This document shows positions 5,342-52,804 of a DNA stretch of 64,000 bases, piece after piece. The notes beneath the pieces were generated by a model. It was given only the letters and a program-made list of their open reading frames with translations. It was not told the origin of the DNA and searched no databases. Within the stretch, counting starts at the first letter, position 1. Each line of letters opens with the position of its first letter. The position numbers were made by a program, and so were the translations under genes. The stretch is from a virus: the IMG/VR virus record IMGVR_UViG_3300013093_003863, positions 24,770 to 88,769 of that record. One strand, given 5' to 3'.

Positions 5342-6538
5342 TTAGTGGAACATCAAGAAGCTATTCATAACATCACGTCGATTAGCTGCTCTGTCGCCGT
5401 GTCCGCTGGCAAATACTACCACATTCCATTTACGTACTGGTCCTACTGGAATTTTCAACATTTCATCGTAGCTGATAATAGTATTGGGACGTATAGGTTG
5501 ACTACTTTCCGCACCAAACGTTTTAATTAAACGTTGTTTAAATTCTTCCCAAGCTTCGGGTGATTTAAATTGTGTACGCCCTTCGGCATCCTTGATGGCC
5601 TTGCCTTTGGGATTGGTTACAATCAAGTCTCTAAACATATCTTTAGGCACTTCAAATGCTTGTTTAACTGTACCGCCACCGGCAATGTGTTGCTTGATTG
5701 GTTTGACTTCGCGACTTTTAGCTCCGCCACTGTGCTGAATTTCAAAGTTGTCGGGCAAGTTGGCCAATGCTGCCATGGCCATCTTGGTATAAGCATAAAA
5801 ATCCACATCCGGATAGTCACGTGCTACTTGTAATGCCATGTCTAAATATTCTTTACTGAAGAAGTCACCAGCATCATGCCAACGTACTACAAGTTTCATT
5901 CCTTTAGCAGCAAGTCCGCTTTTGATTTTATCAATGTTGGCTCGTAACATAGCAAACCACTCTTCGGGATGATTAATCAAAAAGTTAAGACTACGAGCAG
6001 CACTCATGCTACTGGCCGGGAACATTACATAGCCGCCTTTTCGTGCATAACAAAACAGTTGACAAGCACCGGCTCCGGGACAGGTTACAATTTCCACAAA
6101 GTCACCGGTCGCTTCGTCCATGATAATTCCGGCCAGCGCAGGTAGTGTTAGGTCCAATACTACCTCGCCCTCAGTGGCACTTTTTAACATTTTGGCGTTG
6201 GGACTGTCCAGTATGCTTTTGGGTCTAGCCATTATTTGTCTAGCCAAGTCATCTAAATCCCATTCATTGACCGGATTGCCTTCATCATCCACTTGATCAT
6301 CTTTGGTAATGGCCTTGATATTACTGCCATGTATTATACCAGCAAAACGATCTTGTTTGGTTTGAGTGTCGGTCTTGATTCGTTCAGCGCGACTTTGCAT
6401 TGTGCCACGATCAAGTCTACGATGCGGAGCATTTAGTCCAATGGCTTCATCAACTTCGCCGCCGATGTGTAGGGGCTTGACTGTGAATCCACCTAGTTTG
6501 GTGCCCTTGGATTCGATTAAAAATTCACTTGCTCTCAT
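5342..6538 (-). CDS. GP88-like Cys-cluster (radical-SAM-related) phage protein
   Basis: CPGAGACQLFCYARKG, VRWHDAGDFFS, FYAYTK; start MRASEFL overlaps Dps stop (ATGA). Confidence 0.65.
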   Translation of the reverse strand: MRASEFLIESKGTKLGGFTVKPLHIGGEVDEAIGLNAPHRRLDRGTMQSRAERIKTDTQTKQDRFAGIIHGSNIKAITKDDQVDDEGNPVNEWDLDDLARQIMARPKSILDSPNAKMLKSATEGEVVLDLTLPALAGIIMDEATGDFVEIVTCPGAGACQLFCYARKGGYVMFPASSMSAARSLNFLINHPEEWFAMLRANIDKIKSGLAAKGMKLVVRWHDAGDFFSKEYLDMALQVARDYPDVDFYAYTKMAMAALANLPDNFEIQHSGGAKSREVKPIKQHIAGGGTVKQAFEVPKDMFRDLIVTNPKGKAIKDAEGRTQFKSPEAWEEFKQRLIKTFGAESSQPIRPNTIISYDEMLKIPVGPVRKWNVVVFASGHGDRAANRRDVMNSFLMFH

Positions 6539-6981: not shown

Positions 6982-9426
6982 TTAGTCAAAGTATCCGGCA
7001 CGTCGCATTTCGGCCAAACGCACTGCCATTAAACGTTGTTGGCGACGTTCAGCAATGCCCATGGGCTTTTGATATTGGCTGGTCATTGGAGTAGGCCCGG
7101 ACAATTTAGAAACATTTACACGTTGATTGCCGGGCGGAACTGGACTTGATGAATCATCGGGACCGGCTCCCACTGCAGGATCTGCAGCATTGTACTCGTT
7201 CAATTCAATTCCGTAGTGTTTGCATACTTTTAACAATTCGTCGTATGTGAGTAATTCTAAATGACTTACATCCACTTTGTGCTTTAACTGGTCAATCAAG
7301 GACTGTCTACTGGGACCATCTTCGTCAAGACCGGGTGTTCCGGGAATAGCACTTGTACTATCGTTTGGAACCATATGGCCATCCGCATATTCCATTACTT
7401 GCCCTTGGCCATGCCAAGCATCACCTTCACCGTGCCATGAATCTTCGTCGACGTCGTTTTCGTTCATGCCCATGGCATTGTCGATTCTGGTTTCGGCTTT
7501 GGTTTTATAGTAGTATTTGGGTCCGCCTTCTTTGGGATCAACAGCTCGCCACATGAACAATTCTTTGCCGTCTACGTTCATCAACTTGGCAGCACCCGGC
7601 ACTGACATTTCTCTTGGGGCATGATGAAACGAATAGCCTTTATAGTCAATGTCTTGGTTGCCCATCATGCCAGCAACACCGGCTGCACCCAATGTAAATG
7701 CACCCAGTGCGTTTGCAAATTTGCCTTCTTCTACACCTTCAACTGTTGGTGGTTTGCCAGTAATGTACATTTTCCACTCTTTTCCAGTTTGTGCAGTTTT
7801 ACGAGCACACATCTCTCGCATCTTTTGTTTTTGTTCAAACCATGCTTTACTGTTTTCGGGACCGGCACCGGGAAAAATCTTCCAAGTACGCCCATTGATC
7901 TGTATTTCAATGTTGGCAGTGCCCATTGGCTCGTCCTGACCTTTTTTGTGGCCTAATACTTGTTTACCAAATTTGGCAGTGTGTGGTTCAAATTCTGCTT
8001 CAGCTACACCTTGCTCTTTAATTTTTAAATTTTTAAATTGATTCATGCTACTGCCAAACATATTGTCAATTGCAGCTCTTGTTCTTTCTTGGTCTTGCCG
8101 TTTTTGCTCGCGTCTATCTGCGGTGGCTTGTTTTTTGGTGCCCGTTTTAATAGTCGTCATCATGTGGTCAAAAGGCTTATCGCCTGTGGTCTCAGCCACA
8201 TCTCGCTCGTATCCGGTTTCTTCAGCTGCACCGCCAGCGTCGTGTGCCAATTGTTGTATAGCCGCCCAATACTTACGTGGAGCCGTCATGTCATCGCCAT
8301 GCCAGCTGATCGCTTTGCCGAATTTGGCCATTACTTGATTGTAGGCCTTTTCACTGTCAACGCCAAATGTTACGGTATCATATGATCCTTCCGCCACATC
8401 CTGTTGTTTAAGAACAAACACACGTGCAGGACTAATAGGTGATTGACCTGCTCGTTGTGATTTTACTAAGACTTGCCAACTTCCAGTCATCATTTCTGGT
8501 TCACTAACTACTACACCTCGGTCCCAATACTGTTTATCATCTCTTGGAGGATTTGGTAGCATGTCTTTTGGGCCTAACCATAACATTACATGAGTTCCTG
8601 GTTGTAGTCTTGATTGTGACCCTTCCGCTACGCCCTGTTGTTCTCTAACTGCAGGATTGTCAATCTGTTGTGCCACTGCAGTCAAGCCTTCGTTGCCGTT
8701 GGTGATCTTTTTGTACATCCATGCTTCTAGTGGTACGCCCTGTTTAACAGATCGGTAAATCTTTTTTGCAGCCTCGGCTATGGCCCGTAGTTCGCCCAGT
8801 GCCATACCGTCCAGTTGTTCATCTTCCATGGCATAGGCTTCTGTGCCTCCGGTCATCATGGCTTCTTCTACACTCTCACCTAAATCACTGCCTTGAAATT
8901 CTATGTGGTCATATGGACTCCAGGGTTGGCCTGTACGACTGTCTACCTCTTCACCGTTCTCGCCATCATCAGCATATTCATAGTAATCATGACTGGCCAT
9001 GTCTACACCATCAAAATCTGCGTTGTAGTCAATGTAGTATTTTCTTACCTTGCCATCAGGACAATGTACGCCACGACTCAATATTTTTTCCACTGCCACT
9101 TGTGCATCAATAACCTTCTTCATTGGGCTACCACCTTTTCGGGCTATGTCTGCCAATAGGCTCAGATCCTGTGTGTACCAAGCCTGTGCCAAAGCATGTA
9201 GATAACCCATACCATTGTCACCACCGCCGTATTCGGGACTGGGTGCAAATTCTTTTAAAGGTTTATTTTTAACACAGTTATTGACCTTGACCTCTTTGCC
9301 ATAAGTGGGACTGGCCTTTGATCCTTCTTTGTGCCAACCGGTGCGGCAGTGTTCACGATTGCGTTGTGCTTGAGTGCGTTTGGCTTCTGCAATGCTCATG
9401 GCATCTACAATATCATTTAAAAACAT
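6982..9426 (-). CDS. Large modular protein, probable virion/head cargo
   Basis: 814 aa; repeated QQGVAEG/QQDVAEG/EQGVAEA linkers; TAATG coupling with upstream gene. Confidence 0.6.
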   Translation of the reverse strand: MFLNDIVDAMSIAEAKRTQAQRNREHCRTGWHKEGSKASPTYGKEVKVNNCVKNKPLKEFAPSPEYGGGDNGMGYLHALAQAWYTQDLSLLADIARKGGSPMKKVIDAQVAVEKILSRGVHCPDGKVRKYYIDYNADFDGVDMASHDYYEYADDGENGEEVDSRTGQPWSPYDHIEFQGSDLGESVEEAMMTGGTEAYAMEDEQLDGMALGELRAIAEAAKKIYRSVKQGVPLEAWMYKKITNGNEGLTAVAQQIDNPAVREQQGVAEGSQSRLQPGTHVMLWLGPKDMLPNPPRDDKQYWDRGVVVSEPEMMTGSWQVLVKSQRAGQSPISPARVFVLKQQDVAEGSYDTVTFGVDSEKAYNQVMAKFGKAISWHGDDMTAPRKYWAAIQQLAHDAGGAAEETGYERDVAETTGDKPFDHMMTTIKTGTKKQATADRREQKRQDQERTRAAIDNMFGSSMNQFKNLKIKEQGVAEAEFEPHTAKFGKQVLGHKKGQDEPMGTANIEIQINGRTWKIFPGAGPENSKAWFEQKQKMREMCARKTAQTGKEWKMYITGKPPTVEGVEEGKFANALGAFTLGAAGVAGMMGNQDIDYKGYSFHHAPREMSVPGAAKLMNVDGKELFMWRAVDPKEGGPKYYYKTKAETRIDNAMGMNENDVDEDSWHGEGDAWHGQGQVMEYADGHMVPNDSTSAIPGTPGLDEDGPSRQSLIDQLKHKVDVSHLELLTYDELLKVCKHYGIELNEYNAADPAVGAGPDDSSSPVPPGNQRVNVSKLSGPTPMTSQYQKPMGIAERRQQRLMAVRLAEMRRAGYFD

Positions 9427-37126: not shown

Positions 37127-38575
37127 TTAACTTAGATACCAAGTGTTCGCAGCCGAAATATAGGTCAATTGAGCTGTTACATTACCGGCACTGAACTTGT
37201 TGCTTGGAACCCATTTGACTGTGGATGTCGAGTATACATTTGCCGAAACAATGGGAGCTACCGATACAATTTTGAATCGTTGTCGATCAACCGGACTAGG
37301 CGGCAATATAATATTACCGCTAGAAATTGACGCCGACCCAGTGCTGTCGATGATCACGGTGCTTACTGCATTATTGGCAGTGAACACACTACCACCACTG
37401 GTTACAAAATTTGTAATATAAGTACCGCCTTCTACTATGCCCGATTTGGTATAGAAGTTGCCGTACACATGAACGCTCTGGTCGTTTTCAATGCCCATGC
37501 CCTGTAGTACAACATTACCGCTATTGCCGCCATCGTCGGCAGTAAAGAATGCAATATTACCACCTAGACCGTATGTGACATTGGATCCGGTCGCATAATG
37601 CACAATGGTTGACAATTGCTGGAACACATTGCCAGTACCACCGGTGCCGGTATAGGCAACAGCATTGCGATATCCAAGATAATCACCGCTTTGTACCGGA
37701 GTAATTGTGGCAGTACTCAAATTACCGCGTGCAGCAGTAAGAGTATAACCGCCAATTTTGGTTGTATCAAGTTGTGCATTTGTGGTGCTGGCCAAACTCA
37801 AATTACCAAGTGCCACTGAATTATACGATCCCAGGGCACTGACAATGTTTTGTCCTTGATCGCCGGCCAGTGCCACTCCCAATGCTGTTTGGCCGCCATT
37901 GTTTTGACCATAGCCCAAGAACAATGTGGGAGCTGCAGTGATTGCAGGATTGAAATAGATCTGTGGGTCACGCAAACTGTTGCGATTGCGAGTAACATCA
38001 AATATCAAATAGTGTGATCCGCCGTCGATTGAACTAAAATCAAATACATAATTGCCGATTGCATCAAAAGTAATAGTACTTGTGCCGGCATTGAATCCAG
38101 CAATATCGCCGTCGGCAATGCTCACACTAGAGGGAAGTGTTACAGTATATGCGGTATTGGTCACATTGATCCAAACTCGCATCAAGCCATAGCCCAATGC
38201 ACCCGATCCAGTACTAGCTGGCCAGTTAATAAAACTCAAGCTGATTGAGGCATTTGTGGTTAACTTTTGAAAGTTGGCTTTTGAAAAATCCAGCTGAACT
38301 GCACCGCTTGCTGTACCCAAATCCAATAAACTCTGTGTCCAAGATGCCAATTGCGGAGCAATAATCTGTGCCCCGGCCATGTTGTTGTTTAAGGTTTGTC
38401 CATTTAAGGCACTGGTTGTAATGACTTTTGACTGTAGATCAGAAATTTCGTTTTCGGCATAGATAAAGTTATTCTTGATATTGGTAAAATTATCTCTGAA
38501 TCCTTGGCTGGAATTATCTTGCCCAGCAATCGGGAAAGTGCCGTCTACGTTGTATGGATTGATGTTGCTTGACAT
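37127..38575 (-). CDS. Virion structural protein (tail/baseplate or fiber-like)
   Basis: 482 aa, Ser/Thr/Gly/Asn-rich beta composition; N-terminus shared with 38627-38923. Confidence 0.6.
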   Translation of the reverse strand: MSSNINPYNVDGTFPIAGQDNSSQGFRDNFTNIKNNFIYAENEISDLQSKVITTSALNGQTLNNNMAGAQIIAPQLASWTQSLLDLGTASGAVQLDFSKANFQKLTTNASISLSFINWPASTGSGALGYGLMRVWINVTNTAYTVTLPSSVSIADGDIAGFNAGTSTITFDAIGNYVFDFSSIDGGSHYLIFDVTRNRNSLRDPQIYFNPAITAAPTLFLGYGQNNGGQTALGVALAGDQGQNIVSALGSYNSVALGNLSLASTTNAQLDTTKIGGYTLTAARGNLSTATITPVQSGDYLGYRNAVAYTGTGGTGNVFQQLSTIVHYATGSNVTYGLGGNIAFFTADDGGNSGNVVLQGMGIENDQSVHVYGNFYTKSGIVEGGTYITNFVTSGGSVFTANNAVSTVIIDSTGSASISSGNIILPPSPVDRQRFKIVSVAPIVSANVYSTSTVKWVPSNKFSAGNVTAQLTYISAANTWYLS

Positions 38576-38947: not shown

Positions 38948-41900
38948 TTATGGAAAAGCACCGTACTGCGGGAACTTTAAATATTGATCTTGTGATCCTG
39001 GGACGTAATATTGATCTCGGTCCGAGAAGAATCTAGTGGTCCCGCCATTGAATGTTGTTTGTGTGCTATTGGCCAATTGTGTGCTATTGGTTTTATACGG
39101 CACATAATAGGGAACTGTGTGTCCCAGCGTAGTATCTAGTGTGTAAATCAAAATACTTCCGTTGTAGGTTTGGCCCATGGCCACTTGTATTTTGCTGTTT
39201 AACACAACGGGTTTGACAAATATCAAATTTACCACATCGTTAACAATGTCAATTTGCCAAATACCGCCGCGTTGATTTACACTGTTGGCCAGACTGGTCA
39301 CTAGAATTGTTGGCGGAATTTGCGGATATGTGATTAATGGTGGAGTAGTAGTAAATGTAATCGACGTGTTGCCGTTTATGTTGGCCAATGTGTAATTTGC
39401 ATTGGTTATCACAGTGCCGTTGACTAACACTGTGGTTGGACTGCTTACAATATTGGCCAAGGTAAAAGTCGCAACATTTCCGTTGGCAGTAAATGATTGT
39501 AAGTTTACTCCGCTGTAGACCGATATTTGAGCCGGATTTGATGGCACAACAACATTGGCCGGCGGTGTTGTAAACAACAAAGTGGTGCCCGATATGGTAT
39601 AACTTGAATTAGATTGCAAAATTCCGTTTACATAAACATTGACTGCACCGGCATTGGCAATGCTTTGACTTATGGTATAGGATGATATTGTGTTATTGCC
39701 AGTTATTGTGGTCGAAGCTTGAGTGGATTCTAGATAGCCCGGCACAATCGAGTAGTCATCATAAGCCTCAGAACTGTAGCCTTGATCCACTCCGGTCAAA
39801 ATATCATTACCGATATAGGCATCTACATAATCTACCCAACCGTCGTATGATCCGCCATTGACAAAATTTTCTTGTTTGGCAAAAATCAAGGTCTGTCCCG
39901 ATTGATAATTTGTTACTCCGTCTATGCCACCATGATTGTTGATATAATCTACAGGTCTGCCGTTGATTTGATCAAACGGAACCGACAATGCATAATTCAC
40001 TGTGGCCACAATGGCTCCGATGTTGTTGACCGGCAAGTAGTCAAAAGTTGTTTCGTATCCGGTAATATACACATTGGCACTGGTGTCAAAATATCGACTG
40101 TAGTTGTTGTCCATGTTGTATCGATCAATGGTAAAGTCAATATTCTTGAAGTTAATGCCTGTGGCTGCAAGATTGTAAGCAATTTTTTTACTGTAACCCG
40201 GTTGTGTATAGGCCAAGACCACAGCCTTGACATAGCCCAAGGGCGGATTGAAACTGTTGCCCGAACTGCCTTCTTGGTCGCTGGTCATCCAATTGGGCAA
40301 ACTGCTCTGGTCATAATAGCCAACATTGTTTACCAATCTCGATATCATGTTGGCCGAGTTGTTGGGATAGATAACGTCGTAATTGTTACCGATAGCATCA
40401 ATATAGGGATTGGCTATCACCCCGGCAAGATTGATCTCGAGTGGAGCACCTTGTCCAGCGGAATTTTCTTCGGGATCAACAATTTCAACATAAACAACCT
40501 CGTACTTGACATTGTAGTTGTCGTCAAATACCACCGCAGTTTTAATCGAGCCAAAATTGTAGGTTTTGGTCCAATGATTGTTGAGTATGGCATTGGCATA
40601 GTTGACATATTGGGTACTGTTAAGTCCGGGCAAGAACAACATTCTTAGATTGTTAGCAACGCCAAACCAAGGATCGGTGGGTTTGTAAATGTAATCGGGA
40701 TTGAATATGATTGTATCATTCAATATTGATTGCAAGGCTGCACGTTGATTTTGTGCCGGCATTGCTGTAAGATACAAATCCACATAGGGCCTTTGATCTA
40801 TTAGATCTACAACCACTGTGAATTTTCTCAACGACGATGAAGTTCCATCAGTGGTAGCGGCTTGTACAGTAAAATTATAAGTTCTATCTAGAGTCAATGC
40901 CCCGTTATCAAATGTGGTTGCAAAATCATCTAGACTGAACAGTTCAAAACTTACACGTCCACTGATATCGCCCGATGGCAATAACGACAAGCCCTGTGGA
41001 AGTCCGGCAGGATATCCCGGAGCATCATATAAACTATAAACTAGATCTTTGCCAATTACACTGGTTGCCGTCACAGACAATTCGCTGACGCTGCCGTTAC
41101 GGATAGTGCCGAGATTGGCTGGTGTGACCCAATTCACAATATTGTTGACATCGCCCAGCACAGTCAAGTTGAAGAATTCCGGGGTGCTGGTGTAGGTATT
41201 TCCACTAATGGTCTTGGACACAACTATACCAAACGTGTAAGTCTGTTCTGAAGTGGATTGACTGTTCAATTTTCCGTACAACCATCCGGTTGTGCTGTCC
41301 AGTGTCAGTCCCGGCAAGTTGGCCGGTGATGTATTTCCCGACGAAAAACTGTCAAAGCCAATATAGTCAAAACCTTGATCGGTACCAGAAACAAAAGTAT
41401 CAAATGTTCCAGCTTCGTTGGCCAAACTGTACGTGATAGTGTCACCGGAAAAATCTAGACCTTGAAATTTATAAGCATAATAACTGTCTTGTCTAGCAGT
41501 TGGTATAGCTCCGGGAGTGTTTAAAAGAATAGGAGTGTATACACCGTTGTAGGACTGTACCGAAATGGTATAGGACTGCAAATCATAATTGGCACCATCA
41601 TAAGCCTGCACAGTAAAACTATAACTCAAGGATTGTGTTGCAGTATTGCCAAAATCGTATGCATCGCCGGGATGATCGTATTCTTGTTGATATATGATAG
41701 CACCACTAGCGGGATCGGTCACAATCGTGTTGTATCCCGATATTGATGAAGCATTGGCTTGCGGAATTGGATAAATGTAACCGCTGATGACACCGGTATT
41801 GGCGTCCAGTGTAACCCCATCGGGCAATGCCCCCGATTCAATACTCCACTGTACTTGAACCAATGGGCTGAGTTCGGTCACTGTGAGTTGTTGATAAAAA

Positions 41901-42568
41901 TAACTGCCGTCGTAATAGGTTTCCAACGAAGTCACTGCGGGTTCAATAACCGGGCCATTGACATCGGTGATGCTGATACTGAACGATCTATCATTTACAA
42001 TTCCACTTGAATCTTGGGCACGTACTGTAAACGAATAAGTCTTGGTTTGATCAACCACAGTTGATGTAGTAAAAGTTGGTACGCCTTGCAGATATCCTGC
42101 CTTGGCTATTTCCATGCCCGCCGGCAATTCGCCCGACAACAGAGTATAAGTTACTGCACTATTGTCTGTGGTTTGCGTCTGTAACGGAATTTGATAATAT
42201 TCGTTGTTGGGCACTGTGCCCAAACTGCCACTGGCCGTTACCCAAGAAATTTTATTTGTAATTGAATTGACAATGTTTATTGTAAATGTACCATCTAGTA
42301 CGTAACCATTTTGGCTGTTTGCACGAACTGTAAACGAATAGGGTACTCGTAATTGACTATTAGTTGAGTAAATAGATGTTGGAGTTCCGCTGATGACGCC
42401 GCTGGAATTACAAGTCAATCCCTGCGGCAGTGCTCCACTAATGATGGAAAAAGTAATTGGTGCCCCGTTATTGGCCGAATCGTATGCCAACAATTGGTAG
42501 GATATGGGTAATTGGCTGGCAAAATTGGCTATAGTGCCCGGAGTAGTAATCCAACTTAGATTTGACAT
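38948..42568 (-). CDS. Large baseplate/tail protein with Ig-like repeats
   Basis: 1206 aa; repeated SGALP.GL.L...G.ISG.P...YSFTVRA units. Confidence 0.7.
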   Translation of the reverse strand: MSNLSWITTPGTIANFASQLPISYQLLAYDSANNGAPITFSIISGALPQGLTCNSSGVISGTPTSIYSTNSQLRVPYSFTVRANSQNGYVLDGTFTINIVNSITNKISWVTASGSLGTVPNNEYYQIPLQTQTTDNSAVTYTLLSGELPAGMEIAKAGYLQGVPTFTTSTVVDQTKTYSFTVRAQDSSGIVNDRSFSISITDVNGPVIEPAVTSLETYYDGSYFYQQLTVTELSPLVQVQWSIESGALPDGVTLDANTGVISGYIYPIPQANASSISGYNTIVTDPASGAIIYQQEYDHPGDAYDFGNTATQSLSYSFTVQAYDGANYDLQSYTISVQSYNGVYTPILLNTPGAIPTARQDSYYAYKFQGLDFSGDTITYSLANEAGTFDTFVSGTDQGFDYIGFDSFSSGNTSPANLPGLTLDSTTGWLYGKLNSQSTSEQTYTFGIVVSKTISGNTYTSTPEFFNLTVLGDVNNIVNWVTPANLGTIRNGSVSELSVTATSVIGKDLVYSLYDAPGYPAGLPQGLSLLPSGDISGRVSFELFSLDDFATTFDNGALTLDRTYNFTVQAATTDGTSSSLRKFTVVVDLIDQRPYVDLYLTAMPAQNQRAALQSILNDTIIFNPDYIYKPTDPWFGVANNLRMLFLPGLNSTQYVNYANAILNNHWTKTYNFGSIKTAVVFDDNYNVKYEVVYVEIVDPEENSAGQGAPLEINLAGVIANPYIDAIGNNYDVIYPNNSANMISRLVNNVGYYDQSSLPNWMTSDQEGSSGNSFNPPLGYVKAVVLAYTQPGYSKKIAYNLAATGINFKNIDFTIDRYNMDNNYSRYFDTSANVYITGYETTFDYLPVNNIGAIVATVNYALSVPFDQINGRPVDYINNHGGIDGVTNYQSGQTLIFAKQENFVNGGSYDGWVDYVDAYIGNDILTGVDQGYSSEAYDDYSIVPGYLESTQASTTITGNNTISSYTISQSIANAGAVNVYVNGILQSNSSYTISGTTLLFTTPPANVVVPSNPAQISVYSGVNLQSFTANGNVATFTLANIVSSPTTVLVNGTVITNANYTLANINGNTSITFTTTPPLITYPQIPPTILVTSLANSVNQRGGIWQIDIVNDVVNLIFVKPVVLNSKIQVAMGQTYNGSILIYTLDTTLGHTVPYYVPYKTNSTQLANSTQTTFNGGTTRFFSDRDQYYVPGSQDQYLKFPQYGAFP

Positions 42569-46453: not shown

Positions 46454-47029
46454 CTAATCCCACATTCCTCTATAATATTTGGCAAACAATCTTAGTCCAT
46501 TTGCAATGCGATCTTCGACTTCCTGATAACCTTCTCGGTCAAATCCCTTGTCGGTGTGAAACTTATCCTCCCAATCGTTGTCAGGATGCAAGTGTTCAAA
46601 GGTCCAAATCATTTCACTTAGTATCCAGGACCAACGTTCATGTACTGTACTGTCTGTGTATCCGTTCTTGGGGTTGGCTTCTTCTGAAGGCCACAACTCT
46701 TCGGGACAATCTTCGGGATCGGTTAATGGACTGCCGTGTTTGTCCATTTGAAGTTGTTTCAACATGGGCAAAATAATTATGGCCAGGGTTGCGTCCATGC
46801 TCCAAGTATCATAATGGTCAATTTTGACATATTTGATCTTAGGATGCACACAATCCAAAATCCATTTTATGCCTCGGCTAATAAATTCAATTCGATCTGT
46901 CCAACGCTCAACCCATTCGGGGTATGGGGGACCGTCTTCTCGTGCCCAGTCACACCAAAAGAATATCCGTTCCATAATCGTGTAAGGTGAAATCCAATGA
47001 TTACGATAGTTAGAAATGTAGATACGCAT
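46454..47029 (-). CDS. Hypothetical phage protein
   Basis: 191 aa; YDTWSMD.TLA.II.PML, GL.LF.KYY..MWD. Confidence 0.6.
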   Translation of the reverse strand: MRIYISNYRNHWISPYTIMERIFFWCDWAREDGPPYPEWVERWTDRIEFISRGIKWILDCVHPKIKYVKIDHYDTWSMDATLAIIILPMLKQLQMDKHGSPLTDPEDCPEELWPSEEANPKNGYTDSTVHERWSWILSEMIWTFEHLHPDNDWEDKFHTDKGFDREGYQEVEDRIANGLRLFAKYYRGMWD

Positions 47030-47826
47030 TATGGTTTACTCTTACAATTATTAAAATGCCATTGATTCATTTGTGGTGCTCCGCCTTCTTTACCGCAATG
47101 CGGGCATTGTAGTTTGGGCTTTGGTTTTCCGGTCATTGACTTACTTCTTTTTTCATTTGCTTCCGTGGTAGTTGCATTCAGGCTCCAAGTTATTTTTCTG
47201 CCTTTTAACGCATCTCTTTTTTTCTGTTTTGTTTCTTCCGAATCCTTCTTTCCCAATCTAGCCAATCTATTCTTAACTCGTTGCTCTTCAGTCCTTACCT
47301 TACCTCTATTTGCATCTGCAATTTTTTGAATATGCTCTTTAGTTTTTGGTTTTCTTAGTTTTTCTTTATGCTCTTCTGACAGAAGTTTGCCTTTATTGGC
47401 ATGACTGATTTTTCTTTTTGTTGATTCTGAAACAATTCTACCAGTACGTTGTTCTTTCCATAATTTTCGAGTACTATCGGAAACTTTATGTCCTTTTAGT
47501 GAGTTACTAATTTTTGACTTTGTTTCGTCATCACGCGGTCCTCTGATTATATTGGCCTTTGCTAACCCTTCTCGTATATTTTTTCTGGCCTCATCAGTAT
47601 GTTTCCTACCAGTCCAAGTCCTACGAGTCGCTTCTCTCCTTGCTTCATCTGTAGTTATTTGTCCGGATAATGCCTTCCATGCAACTAAATCTTGCCATCT
47701 ACCGTCTTCTTCGTACAATTTACGATGTGCTTCAGCATGTTCTTCAACGGTTAACTCAATTAAATTTTCTGGATCATCAGTGCCACCTGCATGTTTTGGT
47801 ATAATATGATGCTTGTGCTTTCCCAT
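47029..47826 (-). mobile_element. Free-standing HNH homing endonuclease with NUMOD3 repeats
   Basis: HHIIPKHAGG.D..NL..LT.EEH..AH; repeated G.K.S.ETK.KIS units; C-terminal CPHC; AT-rich relative to neighbours. Confidence 0.85.
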
Positions 47827-47895
47827 TTTTAAATACTCCTAGTAGAGTATTTAGTCCGATATATAAACTTTCATATCTATATTATAGCACCTTTT

Positions 47896-48099
47896 TCATT
47901 TCTCGTCAACTCGATCCAGTACCCTGCGAGCATATTTACTTATGCCGCCGCCGTGATCCATTCGCTCAACATCTTCTAATGCTAGTCTAAGTCGAGCATT
48001 TTCCTCTTGTAAACCGTAAACTCGATTACGCAAATTGGCAGCATCGATCCACGATCCAATTGCAGATATCAATTTGGCAACAACATAGCCCCAATTCAT
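47896..48099 (-). CDS. Hypothetical protein
   Basis: 67 aa, ATGA-coupled. Confidence 0.5.
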   Translation of the reverse strand: MNWGYVVAKLISAIGSWIDAANLRNRVYGLQEENARLRLALEDVERMDHGGGISKYARRVLDRVDEK

Positions 48100-48362
48100 T
48101 GGGCGTACTTTAATAAAAACATCATGTACTTCGGCTCGTCCACAATCCTAACCTCAGGCTTGATTGTGTCTATCTCCTCGTTGGACCACTGTAATTCAAT
48201 TCCATAGGTTTCGCAAAACCATTGATGCATTGACCGCGAAGTTTTACAATGTTCCCGGCCTTCACCATCTCGGCATTTCCGCATTGCGGCCCAAAAACCT
48301 GCACTGCCCATGACTGTGTCCAGTCTGCGTTCGTGATCACGGTATAGGTCGTTTATTGCCAT
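48096..48362 (-). CDS. Small array paralog
   Basis: ends MFLLKYAQ. Confidence 0.6.
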   Translation of the reverse strand: MAINDLYRDHERRLDTVMGSAGFWAAMRKCRDGEGREHCKTSRSMHQWFCETYGIELQWSNEEIDTIKPEVRIVDEPKYMMFLLKYAQ

Positions 48363-48580
48363 CGTAATACAAATAATGTTAACGCTTCTTCGCTGGGAAA
48401 TTTAATTATCATACCCGGCATGAAACATTTGTGTGTTTTTACCCACGCACCAATCTCGTGCTCATTTTCATTGTACCATATATAGTTGGTTACCCACACG
48501 CATTTGGGTACGTACAGGTTCTTTTGTCCATAGTCATTGTAATCGTCAACAACAATAAACTTTTCTACAGGTGGCATCAT
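48353..48580 (-). CDS. Small array paralog
   Basis: ends LFVLRWQ. Confidence 0.65.
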   Translation of the reverse strand: MMPPVEKFIVVDDYNDYGQKNLYVPKCVWVTNYIWYNENEHEIGAWVKTHKCFMPGMIIKFPSEEALTLFVLRWQ

Positions 48581-48795
48581 AGGTAAGTCAAGGCAAACAC
48601 AGTGGCAATCTCTTCACGATAAAATGTAAACACAGTTTCTGGCGGAATTTCGCCCGTCATGTCGTCCCAACGTCGTTGACGAAATGCAAAGTCAAAATCT
48701 TGACCCTGTCGCCAGCCTCGTGCTCGTAGCTCTTCTACCAGAGCCAATATTGGACCTGCTTCCTGATTGGTTACAGTGATTTGGATCAACTCCAC
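48577..48795 (-). CDS. Small array paralog
   Basis: ends VFALTYL. Confidence 0.6.
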   Translation of the reverse strand: MELIQITVTNQEAGPILALVEELRARGWRQGQDFDFAFRQRRWDDMTGEIPPETVFTFYREEIATVFALTYL

Positions 48796-49007
48796 CTCAG
48801 TGCAAAAAAGGTTGCCGTTTGATCATCTTTAAAGTAAAAATCTGTTCGATCGGACAAGTATACCACATTCCATTTATCTTTAAATACGCCTAGGTTTTCC
48901 CCAAGCCACCATTCTATCTCATCGATTCGTTTGTCATGTTCGTAATGGCTGTGGTATACCTTGACAGTAACCTTAAAGGGCCAAAGTTCTTTTTTAAGTT
49001 GTCTCAT
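48786..49007 (-). CDS. Small array paralog
   Basis: ends FFALRWS; ATGA start. Confidence 0.65.
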   Translation of the reverse strand: MRQLKKELWPFKVTVKVYHSHYEHDKRIDEIEWWLGENLGVFKDKWNVVYLSDRTDFYFKDDQTATFFALRWS

Positions 49008-49228
49008 GACCACCTCAGTAAAAAGAACGCCAAGTCCTCTTCGTTCTTGATATAAACAACGGTACTGATAATATCATTCCAAGTAGAGCATTTGAAGCCG
49101 GTTTGGTCAATCCAGGATATCAATTTAATCCGTTCCATCTTTTTCATGGCTGGAATCTCAACACGGTATTGATACCCGTCCAATTGGTAAGGGCCAGCAG
49201 TGCTGGGTATTCGATCTATCTGCATCAT
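49004..49228 (-). CDS. Small array paralog
   Basis: ends FFLLRWS; ATGA start. Confidence 0.65.
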   Translation of the reverse strand: MMQIDRIPSTAGPYQLDGYQYRVEIPAMKKMERIKLISWIDQTGFKCSTWNDIISTVVYIKNEEDLAFFLLRWS

Positions 49229-49473
49229 GACCACCTCAATAAAAACAGGGTGCGATCTTGTTCACGTTTAAACTCAAAAACACCTTCACCAACAAAACGC
49301 CATCCCGGCCCCGATACAGTGGCTCCTATACCGCCTCCAAATGTTTCTACACACCATTCCATGCAAGGTCGCCAACCCGGATCCGGGTTACCCGGATATA
49401 CATGTTTGCTGACGCGGTCTCGAATCGGTGCCGCCACACTGGCCACATACCAACCCGTTAATTCGTTCTTCAT
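49225..49473 (-). CDS. Small array paralog
   Basis: ends LFLLRWS; ATGA start. Confidence 0.65.
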   Translation of the reverse strand: MKNELTGWYVASVAAPIRDRVSKHVYPGNPDPGWRPCMEWCVETFGGGIGATVSGPGWRFVGEGVFEFKREQDRTLFLLRWS

Positions 49474-49691
49474 GCCCACCTCAATAAAAACACGGTAATT
49501 TCTTCATCGGTTCGAAACTGCCAAGTATCAAAACTTGTGCGGATTCCACAGTCGTTTTCTTTGCTCCAATGGTGTACGGGATCCATATCTCGTTCGTTAA
49601 GACCCCAGCCGGGATTGCTAGGCCAAAGTCCATAATCAACGTCGGCCCGCAATCTCATTCCGGTCCTGATCCATGTAATTTTTTTATTCAC
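49470..49691 (-). CDS. Small array paralog
   Basis: ends VFLLRWA. Confidence 0.65.
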   Translation of the reverse strand: MNKKITWIRTGMRLRADVDYGLWPSNPGWGLNERDMDPVHHWSKENDCGIRTSFDTWQFRTDEEITVFLLRWA

Positions 49692-49914
49692 GATTTAAAT
49701 ATTTAAGTATAAACCAAGTCTCCTTGGCGTCATCATAGAAATCCAAAAAGACTTGACGTTGTGTGCCATGTTGATCAGAATACCAACGATGTTCACGAAC
49801 TGTAAATCCCAGTTCACGCTTCATTACACCACGCATCACAACATAACTTCTTGGCCAGTCATCCAGTAACTGATCCTGAATCCTATCCCATTCTTTTTTA
49901 GTTAACGTAATCAT
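49684..49914 (-). CDS. Small array paralog
   Basis: ends WFILKYLNRE; ATGA start. Confidence 0.6.
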   Translation of the reverse strand: MITLTKKEWDRIQDQLLDDWPRSYVVMRGVMKRELGFTVREHRWYSDQHGTQRQVFLDFYDDAKETWFILKYLNRE

Positions 49915-50171
49915 GACCATTTCAATACAAATGCAGTATGACTGCTTTCTTGATCCCAACGTAGATACATGCCCTGTGTGCTGGTTACAATCAATCTACC
50001 ACCTAATGGTTTTAATTCATAGTTGATTACAGTTTTAATGTCCCACCCAGTTTTCTCGACTATTTTGCCACAATACGAGCAAAAGTTACTAAAATAACTT
50101 GGCCACTCATCGGCATCAAATCTACCAGTTGTCACACTAATACAAAATTTATCATTCGTGATCCGGTTCAT
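49911..50171 (-). CDS. Small array paralog
   Basis: ends AFVLKWS; ATGA start. Confidence 0.65.
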   Translation of the reverse strand: MNRITNDKFCISVTTGRFDADEWPSYFSNFCSYCGKIVEKTGWDIKTVINYELKPLGGRLIVTSTQGMYLRWDQESSHTAFVLKWS

Positions 50172-50395
50172 GCCCACCTCAATAAAAACAAGGTTCTATG
50201 ATGGCTGTCGGCAATATACAAGTCACAATGAAAAGTTTGTCGACCCTGTCGAGTACGACTATGTTCGCCTTGCCATTCATACTCAACTCCATTGTCCTTA
50301 CACCAATCATAAACGTCGTGTAAAAAATCTCGTACTGTGCGATATTGCTCCGCAGTGGCCGTTCCAGTCACAATATGTTCCTCAGGTCGTCTCAT
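50168..50395 (-). CDS. Small array paralog
   Basis: ends LFLLRWA; ATGA start. Confidence 0.65.
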   Translation of the reverse strand: MRRPEEHIVTGTATAEQYRTVRDFLHDVYDWCKDNGVEYEWQGEHSRTRQGRQTFHCDLYIADSHHRTLFLLRWA

Positions 50396-50619
50396 AGCCA
50401 CATCAGGGTAAAATAACTTGCATCTTCGGGACGTCGAAATCTAAAACTGAAACCTTTGGCTCCAACTAAACCACTGAGGTGATATTCCCCGCCCGCCGCA
50501 GTCGCAATCCAATCCAGTATTTTTCTTATAGGGTATTCAGGACCGCCCAAAACATCCTCCCAAAGTATTCGTACTTCGGTCCAGTCTTCGGGAGGAGGCC
50601 AAAATTCAAGTTGTTTCAA
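50392..50619 (-). CDS. Small array paralog
   Basis: ends YFTLMWL. Confidence 0.6.
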   Translation of the reverse strand: MKQLEFWPPPEDWTEVRILWEDVLGGPEYPIRKILDWIATAAGGEYHLSGLVGAKGFSFRFRRPEDASYFTLMWL

Positions 50620-50866
50620 AACGTTTGTATTTTAAATTAAAATAAGTCAAATTGTGTTCTTCTAAATCACCATACAGATGAACCTTATATCCATATCCAT
50701 AAATATCAGCACCTATTCCGTATGATAATGATTTGGGAACACAATTCTTCATGCACCATTTACCAGCTTCGCTTTGTTGCCATTCCCAAATTGAACCTGC
50801 AGCATATATTTCGGGATCATCATTATCACCCATTCTAAATTCATGTAATACTGTTCTTATAACCAT
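50606..50866 (-). CDS. Small array paralog
   Basis: ends YFNLKYKRFETT. Confidence 0.6.
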   Translation of the reverse strand: MVIRTVLHEFRMGDNDDPEIYAAGSIWEWQQSEAGKWCMKNCVPKSLSYGIGADIYGYGYKVHLYGDLEEHNLTYFNLKYKRFETT

Positions 50867-50869
50867 TTG

Positions 50870-51112
50870 CTAAAATACTCCGTTGTCATATTGATTCGTG
50901 TTTATTCGCTCACTGTATCCACAATACAATTGAAACATAAGTGCATCATGATCGTCCGCAAAAACGAAATCCATATGATTTGCCTTGGCACGCCATGCGT
51001 ATCGTTCAGTGTTGGGCATGCCAAATCGTTCTATTGACCATGCACATAACTCGTTCCACGCCGCATCATTGTTATAAGGTGATTGCCAGGGTACTCGTAC
51101 GGTTATCGCCAT
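50870..51112 (-). CDS. Small array paralog
   Basis: F.FADDHDALMFQL motif near C-terminus. Confidence 0.6.
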   Translation of the reverse strand: MAITVRVPWQSPYNNDAAWNELCAWSIERFGMPNTERYAWRAKANHMDFVFADDHDALMFQLYCGYSERINTNQYDNGVF

Positions 51113-51303
51113 TTTAATGCAAAGTGACTTGCGTCTTTGGGGTTGAGGAATCGAAAACGATATCGAGGATTTGGACCAAGCCCCAAATCCATATCAATTT
51201 CGTAATCAATGTCGTGTATCAAAAGCCAAGTGCCAGCGTCCAACGCTCGATCGGCACCTTCAATGGTTATAGTGGTCATGTTTAATTGTAACACATCCGC
51301 CAT
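51103..51303 (-). CDS. Small array paralog
   Basis: ends FRFLNPKDASHFALKWR. Confidence 0.6.
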   Translation of the reverse strand: MADVLQLNMTTITIEGADRALDAGTWLLIHDIDYEIDMDLGLGPNPRYRFRFLNPKDASHFALKWR

Positions 51304-51309
51304 TTGTTG

Positions 51310-51672
51310 TCAAAACGTCTGTTGTTTTAATGTTTCCCATACCTTTTTCTGGTCCAGGAACTTTTGACGCAATCGCTCATATTCTTGTGCACAGGCTTTG
51401 AGTTCTTCAAACTCTTCTTCCAACCGGGGATCGGGAGTGAGCATGGCCAATTGGTTTCGAATTTCTCGTAGTGTTTCCATTAGACTGGCATCTCCAAATT
51501 TTATGTCGGCACCTTCATCCATTTGCAGTGTCTTGCCCTGTATAACAGTACTTGAACTCCAAGCGGGGCTTATCGAGGTATTGACATAGTACTGTCCACT
51601 GGCACTTGATAAATTTTGCCATGGGGTTGCTGGTACTGTAAGGTTACCGTAGCTTGTTGGGTAATAACTCAT
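51310..51672 (-). CDS. Hypothetical protein heading the array operon
   Basis: 120 aa; TATAAT 7 nt upstream of ATG. Confidence 0.55.
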   Translation of the reverse strand: MSYYPTSYGNLTVPATPWQNLSSASGQYYVNTSISPAWSSSTVIQGKTLQMDEGADIKFGDASLMETLREIRNQLAMLTPDPRLEEEFEELKACAQEYERLRQKFLDQKKVWETLKQQTF

Positions 51673-51757
51673 AAATACATTATACGTTATTTGCGACTAC
51701 AAAGTCAAGTTCTACCAAATAATTGGATAAATATTTACTACACAACAGGAGCATTTG

Positions 51758-52804
51758 ATGACCGAACGCAGGAAAATTCGTTGGTTAATTGCACATTTCC
51801 CGCAATACTTATTTGTAAGAACTGCCAAAGCCTTCAAGCATGAGTTAGAAAAATTGTGCCCGGGAGAATTTGAAATAGAAATTCTTACTATGTCTGAATA
51901 TGCCGACCAGTACAACAAGCATCCCGAGTTCAAATCATCGCCGCCGGTGATTGCCGGTTTAGATGGTAAAGTCAATACCAATGATCATGTCAAGACGAAC
52001 ACCAGCTGGGCTCAAAATGCAAAAAAATGGGCAGCACTATTCCAAGCTCTCGGCGACGACGAATTTCAATTGAGTCAAACCCAAATCAGCATAATTGGAA
52101 ACGAGCTGGACAAAAATTTCCACGCCATAGATTTACCATTCTTGTTTGATGATCACGACCACGTGACGCGAGTACTAGATGGCGACATAGGCAATAAATT
52201 ATGTACCGAGATCGGGCAAAAAACACCAATTACAGCATTGGCATTTACATATTCTGGCGGTTATCGAGTAATTGGCTCGAATACAAAAATTACCAATTTG
52301 TCAGATTTGGCCAACACCAACTTATTGACTCAAACTGCACACAGCGTGAAACTGTTTGAAGAAATTGGAGCTAAACCGGTTCGCAGATTGGCACTGAGTG
52401 GAGATCAATTGGCCGATGTTGCCAACGATCCAGCAGCATCAGTAGAAACCACATACTTACGCTTTAGCGGTAAACATGTTTACAAAACCGAACACAGTAT
52501 GTTTACTACAAGTATTTTGACCGGTAACAAGTTTTGGAATTCATTAACCAACAAACAACAGGACGCTTTCCGTATTGCTGCAAAGAAAACAGCCAAACAC
52601 GAACGCAAATGGAGCATTGATGATGCAAAAAAATACGAAGATCTTGCACAAGAAAATGGTGTTGAAATCATTGGTATTAGCGAACAAGATCGAGCAGTTT
52701 TGCAACAGGCCGCTCTTTTAACCTACCAAGAACTTGAATCATTGGGCATTGATCCAATATTGGTACAGTCTATTATAGCACAACGAAACAGTCACATACA
52801 GTAA
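51758..52804 (+). CDS. TRAP transporter DctP-like solute-binding protein
   Basis: DLPFLFDDHDH, YSGGYR, FWNSLTNKQQ; no obvious signal peptide. Confidence 0.75.
   Translation: MTERRKIRWLIAHFPQYLFVRTAKAFKHELEKLCPGEFEIEILTMSEYADQYNKHPEFKSSPPVIAGLDGKVNTNDHVKTNTSWAQNAKKWAALFQALGDDEFQLSQTQISIIGNELDKNFHAIDLPFLFDDHDHVTRVLDGDIGNKLCTEIGQKTPITALAFTYSGGYRVIGSNTKITNLSDLANTNLLTQTAHSVKLFEEIGAKPVRRLALSGDQLADVANDPAASVETTYLRFSGKHVYKTEHSMFTTSILTGNKFWNSLTNKQQDAFRIAAKKTAKHERKWSIDDAKKYEDLAQENGVEIIGISEQDRAVLQQAALLTYQELESLGIDPILVQSIIAQRNSHIQ

Follow-up and report, generated by a model that had tools for sequence, protein, structure and literature searches.

A tandem array of small overlapping genes in an uncultured jumbo phage, in which the tail codons of each gene probably also serve the start of the next

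A 64,000-nucleotide (nt) stretch of viral DNA, spanning bases 24770–88769 of the 88,769-bp IMG/VR record IMGVR_UViG_3300013093_003863 and called the window throughout, carries on its minus strand, at 48096–51303 (all positions are those of the window), 14 small open reading frames (ORFs) that follow one another head to tail in the ORF list. Taken as a whole, the evidence makes it probable that these genes form a coupled, tandem array in which the last codons of a gene are dual-coded, i.e. they specify the end of one protein and the start of translation of the next, and that the array is exchanged unit by unit at these same joints. Since CheckV gives the record a completeness of 25%, it is a piece of a jumbo phage genome. 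The carrier is an uncultured freshwater jumbo phage; its record encodes a clamp loader, a DNA ligase, a Lon-like protease, PhoH, radical-SAM proteins, an endolysin and virion proteins.

Overlapping genes and their repeated joints

The genes were named m01 to m14 in the direction of transcription, and their starts were re-read against the sequence upstream. The GTG starts of the ORF list are mostly over-extended; the true starts are likely to be either the ATG within an ATGA overlap or an ATG/GTG made of the last base of an Arg or Lys codon and the TG of the Trp codon that follows (10-nt overlap). With starts corrected in this way, the 14 consecutive ORFs counted in an earlier note on this DNA were all retained, with lengths between 58 and 88 amino acids (aa): 58, 80, 86, 75, 75, 86, 78, 73, 82, 74, 73, 72, 75 and 88 aa from m01 to m14.

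Twelve of the 13 internal junctions are overlaps (of 4, 8, 10 or 13 nt), and the remaining one is a 3-nt gap. The overlaps comprise six of the ATGA type, one TTGA, two of 10 nt (ATG from the last base of Lys/Arg plus the TG of Trp), the m06/m07 junction, which has both kinds of ATG, one of 8 nt with a GTG start and one of 13 nt with a TTG start. At 5 of the 13 junctions, GAGGTGG is written in the Leu-Arg-Trp codons at the end of the upstream gene. The most conspicuous form of the joint is the 21-mer TTTTTAYTGAGGTGGKCATGA, which occurs on the minus strand in four exact copies (49004–49024, 49225–49245, 49470–49490 and 50168–50188; none expected, as estimated from 100 shuffles) and whose F-L-L-R-W-S codons also provide GAGGTGG, the TGA stop and the next ATG. 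These are the four positions at which the earlier note had seen a common junction sequence, and the variants that it listed are likewise present as it described them: CTGAGGTGGAGTTGA at 48786 (the m11/m12 junction), TTGAAATGGTCATGA at 49911, a copy of the 21-mer with three mismatches, and CTGATGTGGCTATGA at 50392. A repeat search of the array was dominated by a 22-nt repeat in six copies, all of them at junctions; the other repeat families were weak (two to four copies of 14–22 nt), and two of these also lie at junctions. The same search detected no inverted repeat or hairpin at the junctions.

Codon choice in the gene tails

The exact 21-mer was found in IMG/VR in 55 stretches on 49 contigs, and members of the same protein family are present in all 55 loci. 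Using a profile built from 130 sequences, 411 unique family genes were gathered from these loci. Of these genes, 386 have a match to the hidden Markov model (HMM) that ends at most three residues from the stop codon, and 315 of the 411 end in [RK]-W followed by 0–3 residues. For codon counts the 44 genes that carry the seed pattern were left out, and 251 of the remaining genes end in [LMIVF]-[RK]-W-x-stop. Their tail Arg codon is AGG in 171 of 219 cases (78%), against 80 of 973 (8%) in the bodies of the same genes (Fisher P = 5e-98); the Leu codon before Arg is TTG in 161 of 238 cases against 195 of 914 in the bodies; the codon following the Trp is mostly TCA or GCA, and the stop is TGA in 203 of the 251. 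Their junctions were classified as ATGA (180), GTGA/TTGA (22), ATG within the R/K-W codons (13) and other (36, many of them TAATG). Shared ancestry does not account for the AGG bias, because in 77 of 88 seed-free clusters, obtained by single linkage at 30% identity, most of the tail Arg codons are AGG. The window itself behaves in the same manner, with AGG at 5 of 6 motif Arg positions, whereas of the 68 other Arg codons in the 14 genes 3 are AGG.

This comparison supports the view that strong selection on synonymous sites keeps the L-R-W codons spelling GAGGTGG immediately before the overlapping start. GAGGUG can base-pair with the CACCUC in the 3' tail of 16S rRNA, and Shine–Dalgarno (SD)-like motifs precede 25 of 74 long phage ORFs, compared with 5.3% of random positions. 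The proposal in the earlier note, that these codons form a GAGGTG SD sequence linked to an overlapping start, is thus supported by the codon bias of the 251 relatives, while in the window it applies to 5 of the 13 junctions.

Exchange of units among related arrays

The array of the relative L057 (~90% nt identity) has the same flanks and units m01–m09, m12 and m14, and is devoid of m10, m11 and m13. At the first difference the tail of m09 is followed up to TTATTGAGGTGG and then by the start of m12; at the second, m13 is gone exactly between two stop/start overlaps. The first codons of m14 differ in L057 because they are supplied by another upstream tail.

A scan of metagenome contigs with m06 gave 12 loci, 11 of which carry arrays of close relatives (L113 being the same contig as L057); the twelfth, L115, has no match to the 18 window proteins and no family match. 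In the order in which their units stand, L104 contains m04–m09, m12, m13 and m14; L107, L108 and L111 contain m01–m06, m08, one unrecognised unit, m12, m13, a gene of 270 aa and m14; L109 contains m01–m08, m12, m13, a TauD-family gene with an 89-aa gene, and m14; L110 contains m03–m08, m12, m13, an unread gap of ~1.3 kb and m14; and L112 contains m02–m04, a 339-aa gene and m05–m09. Of the remaining three, L105 reads m08-like, m05, m09, m06, m11-like; L106 reads m04, m05, m08, X, m09, Y, m06, m10, m11, where X and Y are further units; and L114 has m06, m11, five other family units and an m12-like unit. As assembled, the arrays in this slot differ by whole units, and their order is permuted in L105 and L106. 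The check suggested in the earlier note, a comparison of array content and order among relatives, therefore gave a positive answer, as the order is not invariant and the sets of units differ.

The ends of blastn homology blocks were counted in nine loci, wherever they fell within the array and were not due to the end of a locus; the duplicates L113, L108 and L111 were left out, as was L115, which has no match. Of 47 such ends, 39 fall at most 25 nt from a junction, against an expectation of 23.4% (binomial P = 1e-17; the events are not all independent), and the crossover points vary within the shared stretch of 8–25 nt. Logan contigs from four further lake runs, other than the probable source run, also break at junctions: the joints m09-to-m06 (three runs), m08-to-m05 (two runs), m06-to-m11 (two runs) and, with a short side, the L057-type m09-to-m12 (one run) were recovered, in agreement with L105, which comes from an independent assembly. 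Joints with a short side of 21–26 nt (e.g. 48421 to 50168 and 49031 to 49225) were not counted, being taken as other arrays that share only the junction motif. In two of the lake runs, contigs of relatives over 47800–51800 reach a depth of ~43–53, compared with ~9–19 for contigs identical to the window; the reordered variant seems to be the commoner form there, contig depth being a poor measure.

The unrelated 339-aa gene of L112 takes its start from exactly the ATGA in the m04 tail at which m05 begins in the window; unrelated genes can therefore use the joint. The genes inserted at unit borders are located at L109:4413–5785, L112:1173–2192 and L107:6147–6959. The L109 insert is a TauD/TfdA-family dioxygenase gene (E = 8e-14) followed by the 89-aa gene, and the products of the L112 and L107 inserts are visibly similar to each other and without Pfam match. 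L107 also has, at 5473–5706, a unit of 77 aa that starts in a canonical LLRWA/ATGA junction, ends in a different tail and is missed by the family HMM; it may represent a cassette of foreign origin or a family member that has diverged very far.

The units are maintained as proteins. For 56 orthologue pairs (72–99% identity) the ratio of non-synonymous to synonymous substitution rates (dN/dS) has a median of 0.18 and a range of 0.04 to 0.74, which indicates purifying selection. Between the window and L057, dS is 0.07 for m02, 0.04 for m04, 0.42 for m05, 0.17 for m06, saturated for m08 and 0.16 for m09. Such many-fold changes between adjacent units point to unit-wise mosaicism, as unit-wise replacement predicts.

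Proposed mechanism and its weighing against a by-product of protein conservation

The following mechanism would bring these observations together. A polycistronic array would sit in a hyperplastic slot of early type. The C-terminal helix of the family ends in F-x-L-[RK]-W-x-stop, and synonymous selection would write this end as (T/C)TG AGG TGG NCA TGA, so that the same 15–20 bases would complete the fold, pair with the 16S rRNA tail through GAGGUG, stop the ribosome and offer it the next AUG in an AUGA overlap. Translation would most likely be handed from unit to unit by termination–reinitiation aided by the intragenic SD, with a minority of junctions reaching the same end by NNA+TGG ATG or by TAATG. 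As the only DNA repeated between units, the junction would also be the place where recombination, whether homologous or based on microhomology, is resolved, both from unit to unit and among co-infecting relatives; the comparative pattern is observed and the pathway is our inference. Whole units would in this way be deleted, duplicated, transposed or replaced in register with their expression kept. The parts of this mechanism are known, namely coupled overlapping genes with intragenic SD and short-repeat recombination in a hyperplastic region; what is new here is the scale, the embedding in the signature of a protein family and the demonstrated shuffling.

Several points weigh against this interpretation. 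GAGGTGG is absent from 8 of the 13 window junctions (AAATGG, CGATGG, ATGTGG, the GTG start, the TTG start and the 3-nt gap are among them); these must work without a strong SD, and the motif is therefore not required for expression. Where it is present, only 3 nt separate GAGGTG from the ATG (5 nt when counted from GAGG), a distance at the short end of functional spacings. The loci used for codon counts were fetched by the junction pattern itself and the phages sampled are thus users of the motif, though the seed junctions were excluded. The reordered arrays are short-read assemblies and might include chimeras, though the repeat is only ~21 nt long and the joints recur in independent assemblies. 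None of the 24 runs listed is RNA. Finally, the folds matched in the PDB are generic alpha+beta sandwiches with no bearing on the role of the proteins.

The eight junctions that function without GAGGTGG also fit the plainest alternative, that the pattern is a by-product of helix conservation combined with duplication or gene conversion, with a GAGGTGG that has no role in translation and with insertions and deletions of the kind usual for tandem arrays. The tail is indeed conserved as protein (Phe68 is invariant, Leu70 and Trp72 nearly so), and any array of paralogues can be expected to undergo unequal crossing-over where its sequence is best conserved. However, protein constraint leaves unexplained the choice of AGG in the tails as opposed to the bodies, as well as TTG and NCA. 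The bias recurs in 77 of 88 clusters that share <30% identity, which neither recent ancestry nor local conversion can yield; moreover, the bodies of neighbouring units are only 16–31% identical, so that synonymous sites would be saturated in the absence of selection. We consider this explanation improbable, and the coupled, dual-coded and exchangeable array remains our preferred interpretation. As far as sequence can tell, modularity may be a target of selection or may simply follow from the places at which recombinants are viable. The self-coupling cassette design put forward in the earlier note is supported by comparison in that units are exchanged at the motif and that unrelated genes use its ATGA; the word design is not supported, being inseparable from a recombination by-product.

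One protein family with a compact predicted fold

The products of m01–m14 share 16–31% identity with the first member and can be aligned along their whole length (alignment A1); the alignment contains invariant Trp (in helix 1), Phe and Leu residues, a Gly that hardly varies and the F..F.L motif. In a leave-one-out HMM test, 12 of the 14 members were recovered at E < 0.05 in a search space of 1021 contig ORFs, m03 (E = 0.64) and m06 (E = 0.094) being marginal. The full HMM found no further member in the 88.8-kb contig, the best non-array ORF among the 1021 being at E = 0.063. The 14 proteins are thus one family of old, diverged paralogues. An AlphaFold2 model of m11, made with an alignment of 130 family members, has a mean predicted local distance difference test (pLDDT) score of 91.3 and a predicted template modelling (pTM) score of 0.80, and displays the order beta-alpha-beta-beta-alpha (strand 11–16, helix 26–39, strands 46–50 and 54–59, helix 62–72); the model of m03 (pLDDT 70.8) has the same order of elements. 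The test of a single fold that the earlier note had called for is answered by these results, since the HMM unites 12 of the 14 and even the models of m11 and m03 do not show unrelated folds. Prediction of an m11 homodimer (two copies, alignment A2) returned no answer (score 0.00) and counts neither way. All 14 proteins are soluble and mildly acidic to neutral, with isoelectric points (pI) of 4.5–7.8; the idea of a DNA mimic was dropped, as these values give no pointer to it.

Dissimilar N-termini and a shared C-terminal motif had been noticed at the outset. The motif is real, and similarity is not confined to it, as the helix-1 Trp and the Gly are conserved too. The earlier note went on to suggest that the C-terminal helix of all these proteins binds one common partner, in which case the L-R-W tail would be a free docking peptide and the nucleotide conservation secondary. 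In agreement with this idea, no other part of the family is as well conserved as the tail, and its [RK] position holds a conserved polar residue. In the model, however, the tail is the end of helix 2 (62–72) of a compact domain predicted with high confidence, and so looks like a fold element; the conserved positions Ala65, Phe68, Leu70 and Trp72 are hydrophobic, as would be expected if the helix packs against a sheet, and conservation extends beyond the tail to the helix-1 Trp, the Gly and strand residues. We regard a docking peptide as about as doubtful as the by-product considered above, and the common-partner claim found no support.

Database searches place the family among viruses and give it no name. 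Pfam curated cut-offs were reached by none of the 14 members and none of 149 relatives. Against PHROGs, the 14 members gave two weak rows only (E = 0.0024 and 0.0068), and none of 130 members matched at 1e-3. A profile search of the PDB gave nothing below E = 0.17 and Foldseek against the PDB nothing at E ≤ 1e-3; the best VIA-align Z, 6.5 (ferredoxin-like/ACT/RRM-type sandwiches), is within the common range of the tool. Foldseek against BFVD retrieved dozens of uncharacterised proteins of uncultured phages (best E = 1.4e-4), with weak rows for Agrobacterium phage Atu_ph07 and BcepSauron. When 1.84 billion representatives were searched with a profile, 288 clusters were obtained at E ≤ 1e-3 (best 7.9e-9), whose representatives are nearly all of 51–106 aa and match through their last residue. 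A word-indexed search gave 103 proteins, the named ones being hypothetical except for one odd membrane-protein label and two uninformative metaclust labels. The ESM Atlas cluster that holds m11 has 4872 members, 97% of them viral. The family is thus large, virus-only, and without a name or a Pfam or PHROG model. In the open-access literature searched (supplements excluded), no paper on the family or its junction was found.

Three near-complete jumbo genomes (321–374 kb) have 15, 33 and 38 family matches, mostly in one to three clusters. Among cultured phages, Atu_ph07 (MF403008.1, 490 kb) has six weak matches (best E = 1.6e-4). Two of its proteins, AUZ95034.1 (198223–198555) and AUZ95037.1 (199522–199830) of locus L102, with within-genome E-values of 1.6e-4 and 2.5e-4 and tails ...ALAFAITF... 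and ...ALQFVLRYE..., look like distant members with N-terminal extensions, and the Atu_ph07 proteins could give an experimental handle on the family. Limnohabitans phage DC31 has no family match. Neither megablast with the array nor tblastn with m11 (at E = 0.01) gave a match among 50,697 GenBank phages, and a search for related loci with m11 alone gave no locus. None of 7682 candidates was scored as a longer (fused) relative, which is weak evidence. Four proteins of 105–161 aa (P0060, P0099, P0136 and P0148) have two family domains per chain, and in P0060 the chain runs straight on past an internal ...LRWS; they look like adjacent units fused through a lost stop or a frame step.

Relation to known systems

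At the level of translation, the array resembles the coupled overlapping genes described by Huber et al. (2019; PMC6728339): in both, the genes are co-directional, stop and start overlap by 4 nt (or 1 nt) and the SD lies in the last codons of the upstream gene. According to the parts of that study cited here, an intragenic SD is usual in overlapping pairs and coupling is tight; translation was strictly coupled in 13 of 14 pairs tested, with a variable contribution of the SD. The array differs from the pairs dealt with in those parts in three respects: (i) SD, stop and start sit within the signature motif of one protein family, (ii) the genes form chains, of 14 here and of 15 to 38 units per genome in the three jumbo phages, and (iii) the same stretch is the breakpoint.

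For evolutionary behaviour, the closest analogue among the systems compared is provided by the promoter early stem-loop (PeSL) cassettes of T4-type phages (Arbiol et al. 2010, PMC2839356; Comeau et al. 2014, PMC4122927). As presented in the portions of these papers cited here, PeSLs too are short conserved expression signals between small, non-essential genes of hyperplastic regions, and act as exchange points that lead to insertions and deletions, replacements and shuffling among closely related phages. PeSLs are intergenic, combine a promoter with terminator hairpins, act at the level of transcription and flank unrelated ORFans, whereas the joint of the array consists of coding and translation signals, its units are paralogues, and no promoter or stem-loop is present at the joints. 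Amplification of a small domain to dozens of copies in a jumbo phage is likewise known from Bacillus phage G, with ~35 zinc-ribbon copies; in the section of Iyer et al. (2021; PMC7824862) cited here, this expansion is thought to serve regulation or host conflict. The phage G domain is of another fold and family, and that section makes no mention of dual-coded junctions or of unit shuffling.

Integron arrays offer a further parallel, as they also consist of promoterless cassettes expressed from one upstream promoter and undergo gain, loss and reordering. On this basis the junction could be conceived as the attachment site of a dedicated recombinase, and the insertion of unrelated genes at one short conserved site would fit such a site-specific system. 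However, none of the 45 window ORFs of at least 150 aa that were scanned against PHROGs matched an integrase, a recombinase or other dedicated recombination machinery; the adjacent HNH endonuclease gene is missing from relatives with the same variation; the junction is coding sequence with no attC-like site, inverted repeat or hairpin; and crossovers are scattered over 8–25 nt, as homology-driven exchange predicts. A site-specific cassette system is thus very improbable. As for the ORFs being chance frames in repetitive DNA, their small size and their absence from any annotation are outweighed by the low median dN/dS of the 56 pairs, the confident predicted fold, the thousands of members ending at the same motif (cf. 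the 386 of 411 above) and the gapless succession of units, so that this explanation is refuted for practical purposes.

Individual units and neighbouring genes

The units are described here in the direction of transcription (all on the minus strand). For m01 (51103–51279, 58 aa), the ATG at 51279 is preferred to the less likely listed ATG at 51303; its orthologue in L057 has an open frame of just 60 codons. m02 (50870–51112, 80 aa) has an ATG built from the AA-A+TG-G of the Lys-Trp codons of m01 (10-nt overlap), an extended tail with no LRW ending and a leave-one-out E of 4.3e-6. m03 (50606–50866, 86 aa), which lies 3 nt after the m02 stop, is the weakest family member, and m04 (50392–50619, 75 aa) begins with TTG in a 13-nt overlap with its end and finishes in L-M-W-L. 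m05 (50168–50395, 75 aa), joined to m04 by an ATGA overlap, ends in TTA TTG AGG TGG GCA TGA; m06 (49911–50171, 86 aa) starts inside this canonical junction and ends in L-K-W-S (AAA, no GAGG). m07 (49684–49920, 78 aa) has a choice of two ATG codons, at 49920 or 49914, and ends in LKYLNRE, and m08 (49470–49691, 73 aa) has a GTG start in an 8-nt overlap with the m07 stop and a canonical LLRWA tail. Both flanking junctions are canonical for m09 (49225–49473, 82 aa) and for m10 (49004–49228, 74 aa). m11, the member with the high-confidence model, lies at 48786–49007 (73 aa). m12 (48577–48795, about 70–72 aa) starts either at TTG 48789, in a TTGA overlap, or at GTG 48795, and ends in L-T-Y-L; m13 (48353–48580, 75 aa) is linked to it by an ATGA overlap, and the m13 tail CGA TGG CAA TAA provides the ATG of m14 (48096–48362, 88 aa). 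The stop of this last member overlaps (ATGA) the start of an unrelated 67-aa gene.

This 67-aa gene (47896–48099, minus strand), not of the family, is the right border of the slot in relatives. The left border is a 120-aa gene (51310–51672, minus strand), also not of the family and kept in relatives. At 11 of 12 consensus positions, three sigma-70-like matches were found on the minus strand (at 51708, 51313 and 47909), all outside the internal junctions: one before the 120-aa gene (51679–51708), one directly before m01, at the head of the array (51285–51313, TTGACA-17-TACAAT), and one after the 67-aa gene. These consensus matches fit one early transcript read by the host polymerase. The match at 51285–51313 ends 6 nt before the likely ATG of m01, and m01 might, speculatively, be translated from a leaderless or near-leaderless mRNA. 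A scan of the window gave no terminator-like hairpin at any junction and no consensus promoter at the internal ones.

An endonuclease gene of the HNH + NUMOD3 homing type (Pfam and PHROG matches) is located at 47029–47826 on the minus strand, between the 67-aa gene and a 191-aa gene. It is a free-standing mobile insertion in the phage of the window, since the 67-aa and 191-aa genes directly adjoin each other in relatives (L104, L107, L108, L110 and L111). No tRNA was found in the window, and no Rfam family reached its gathering threshold between 46000 and 53000. Three long minus-strand ORFs of the window, of 1206 aa (38948–42568), 814 aa (6982–9426) and 482 aa (37127–38575), had no PHROG match at 1e-5.

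Biological meaning

The proteins of the array could be diversified early host-interaction binders built on one scaffold and used in takeover or in counter-defence, an assignment to which we would give slightly less than an even chance. It is suggested by the combination of one scaffold with variable surfaces, probably early expression, fast turnover among co-occurring relatives and purifying selection. A more far-reaching possibility, which we hold to be rather unlikely, is that a plug-and-play cassette grammar has evolved in the LRW junction, which would then match the integron and the PeSL at the level of translation and do so with no integrase. By this means co-infecting freshwater jumbo phages would swap, amplify and reorder the members of a very large family of early host-interaction effectors (for counter-defence or takeover), and even unrelated genes, with guaranteed expression. 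If this were true, the family would be one main diversifying arsenal of jumbo phages of the T4 superfamily.

In the interpretation that we consider probable, one short sequence would be under three simultaneous constraints, those of the fold, of ribosome binding together with stop and start, and of recombination register, and the array would show how phages keep accessory genes fluid without breaking their expression. The population data from the same lakes appear to catch this shuffling in progress and may be used to study the turnover of gene cassettes in uncultured viruses, while the family itself offers candidates for new host-takeover or counter-defence proteins.

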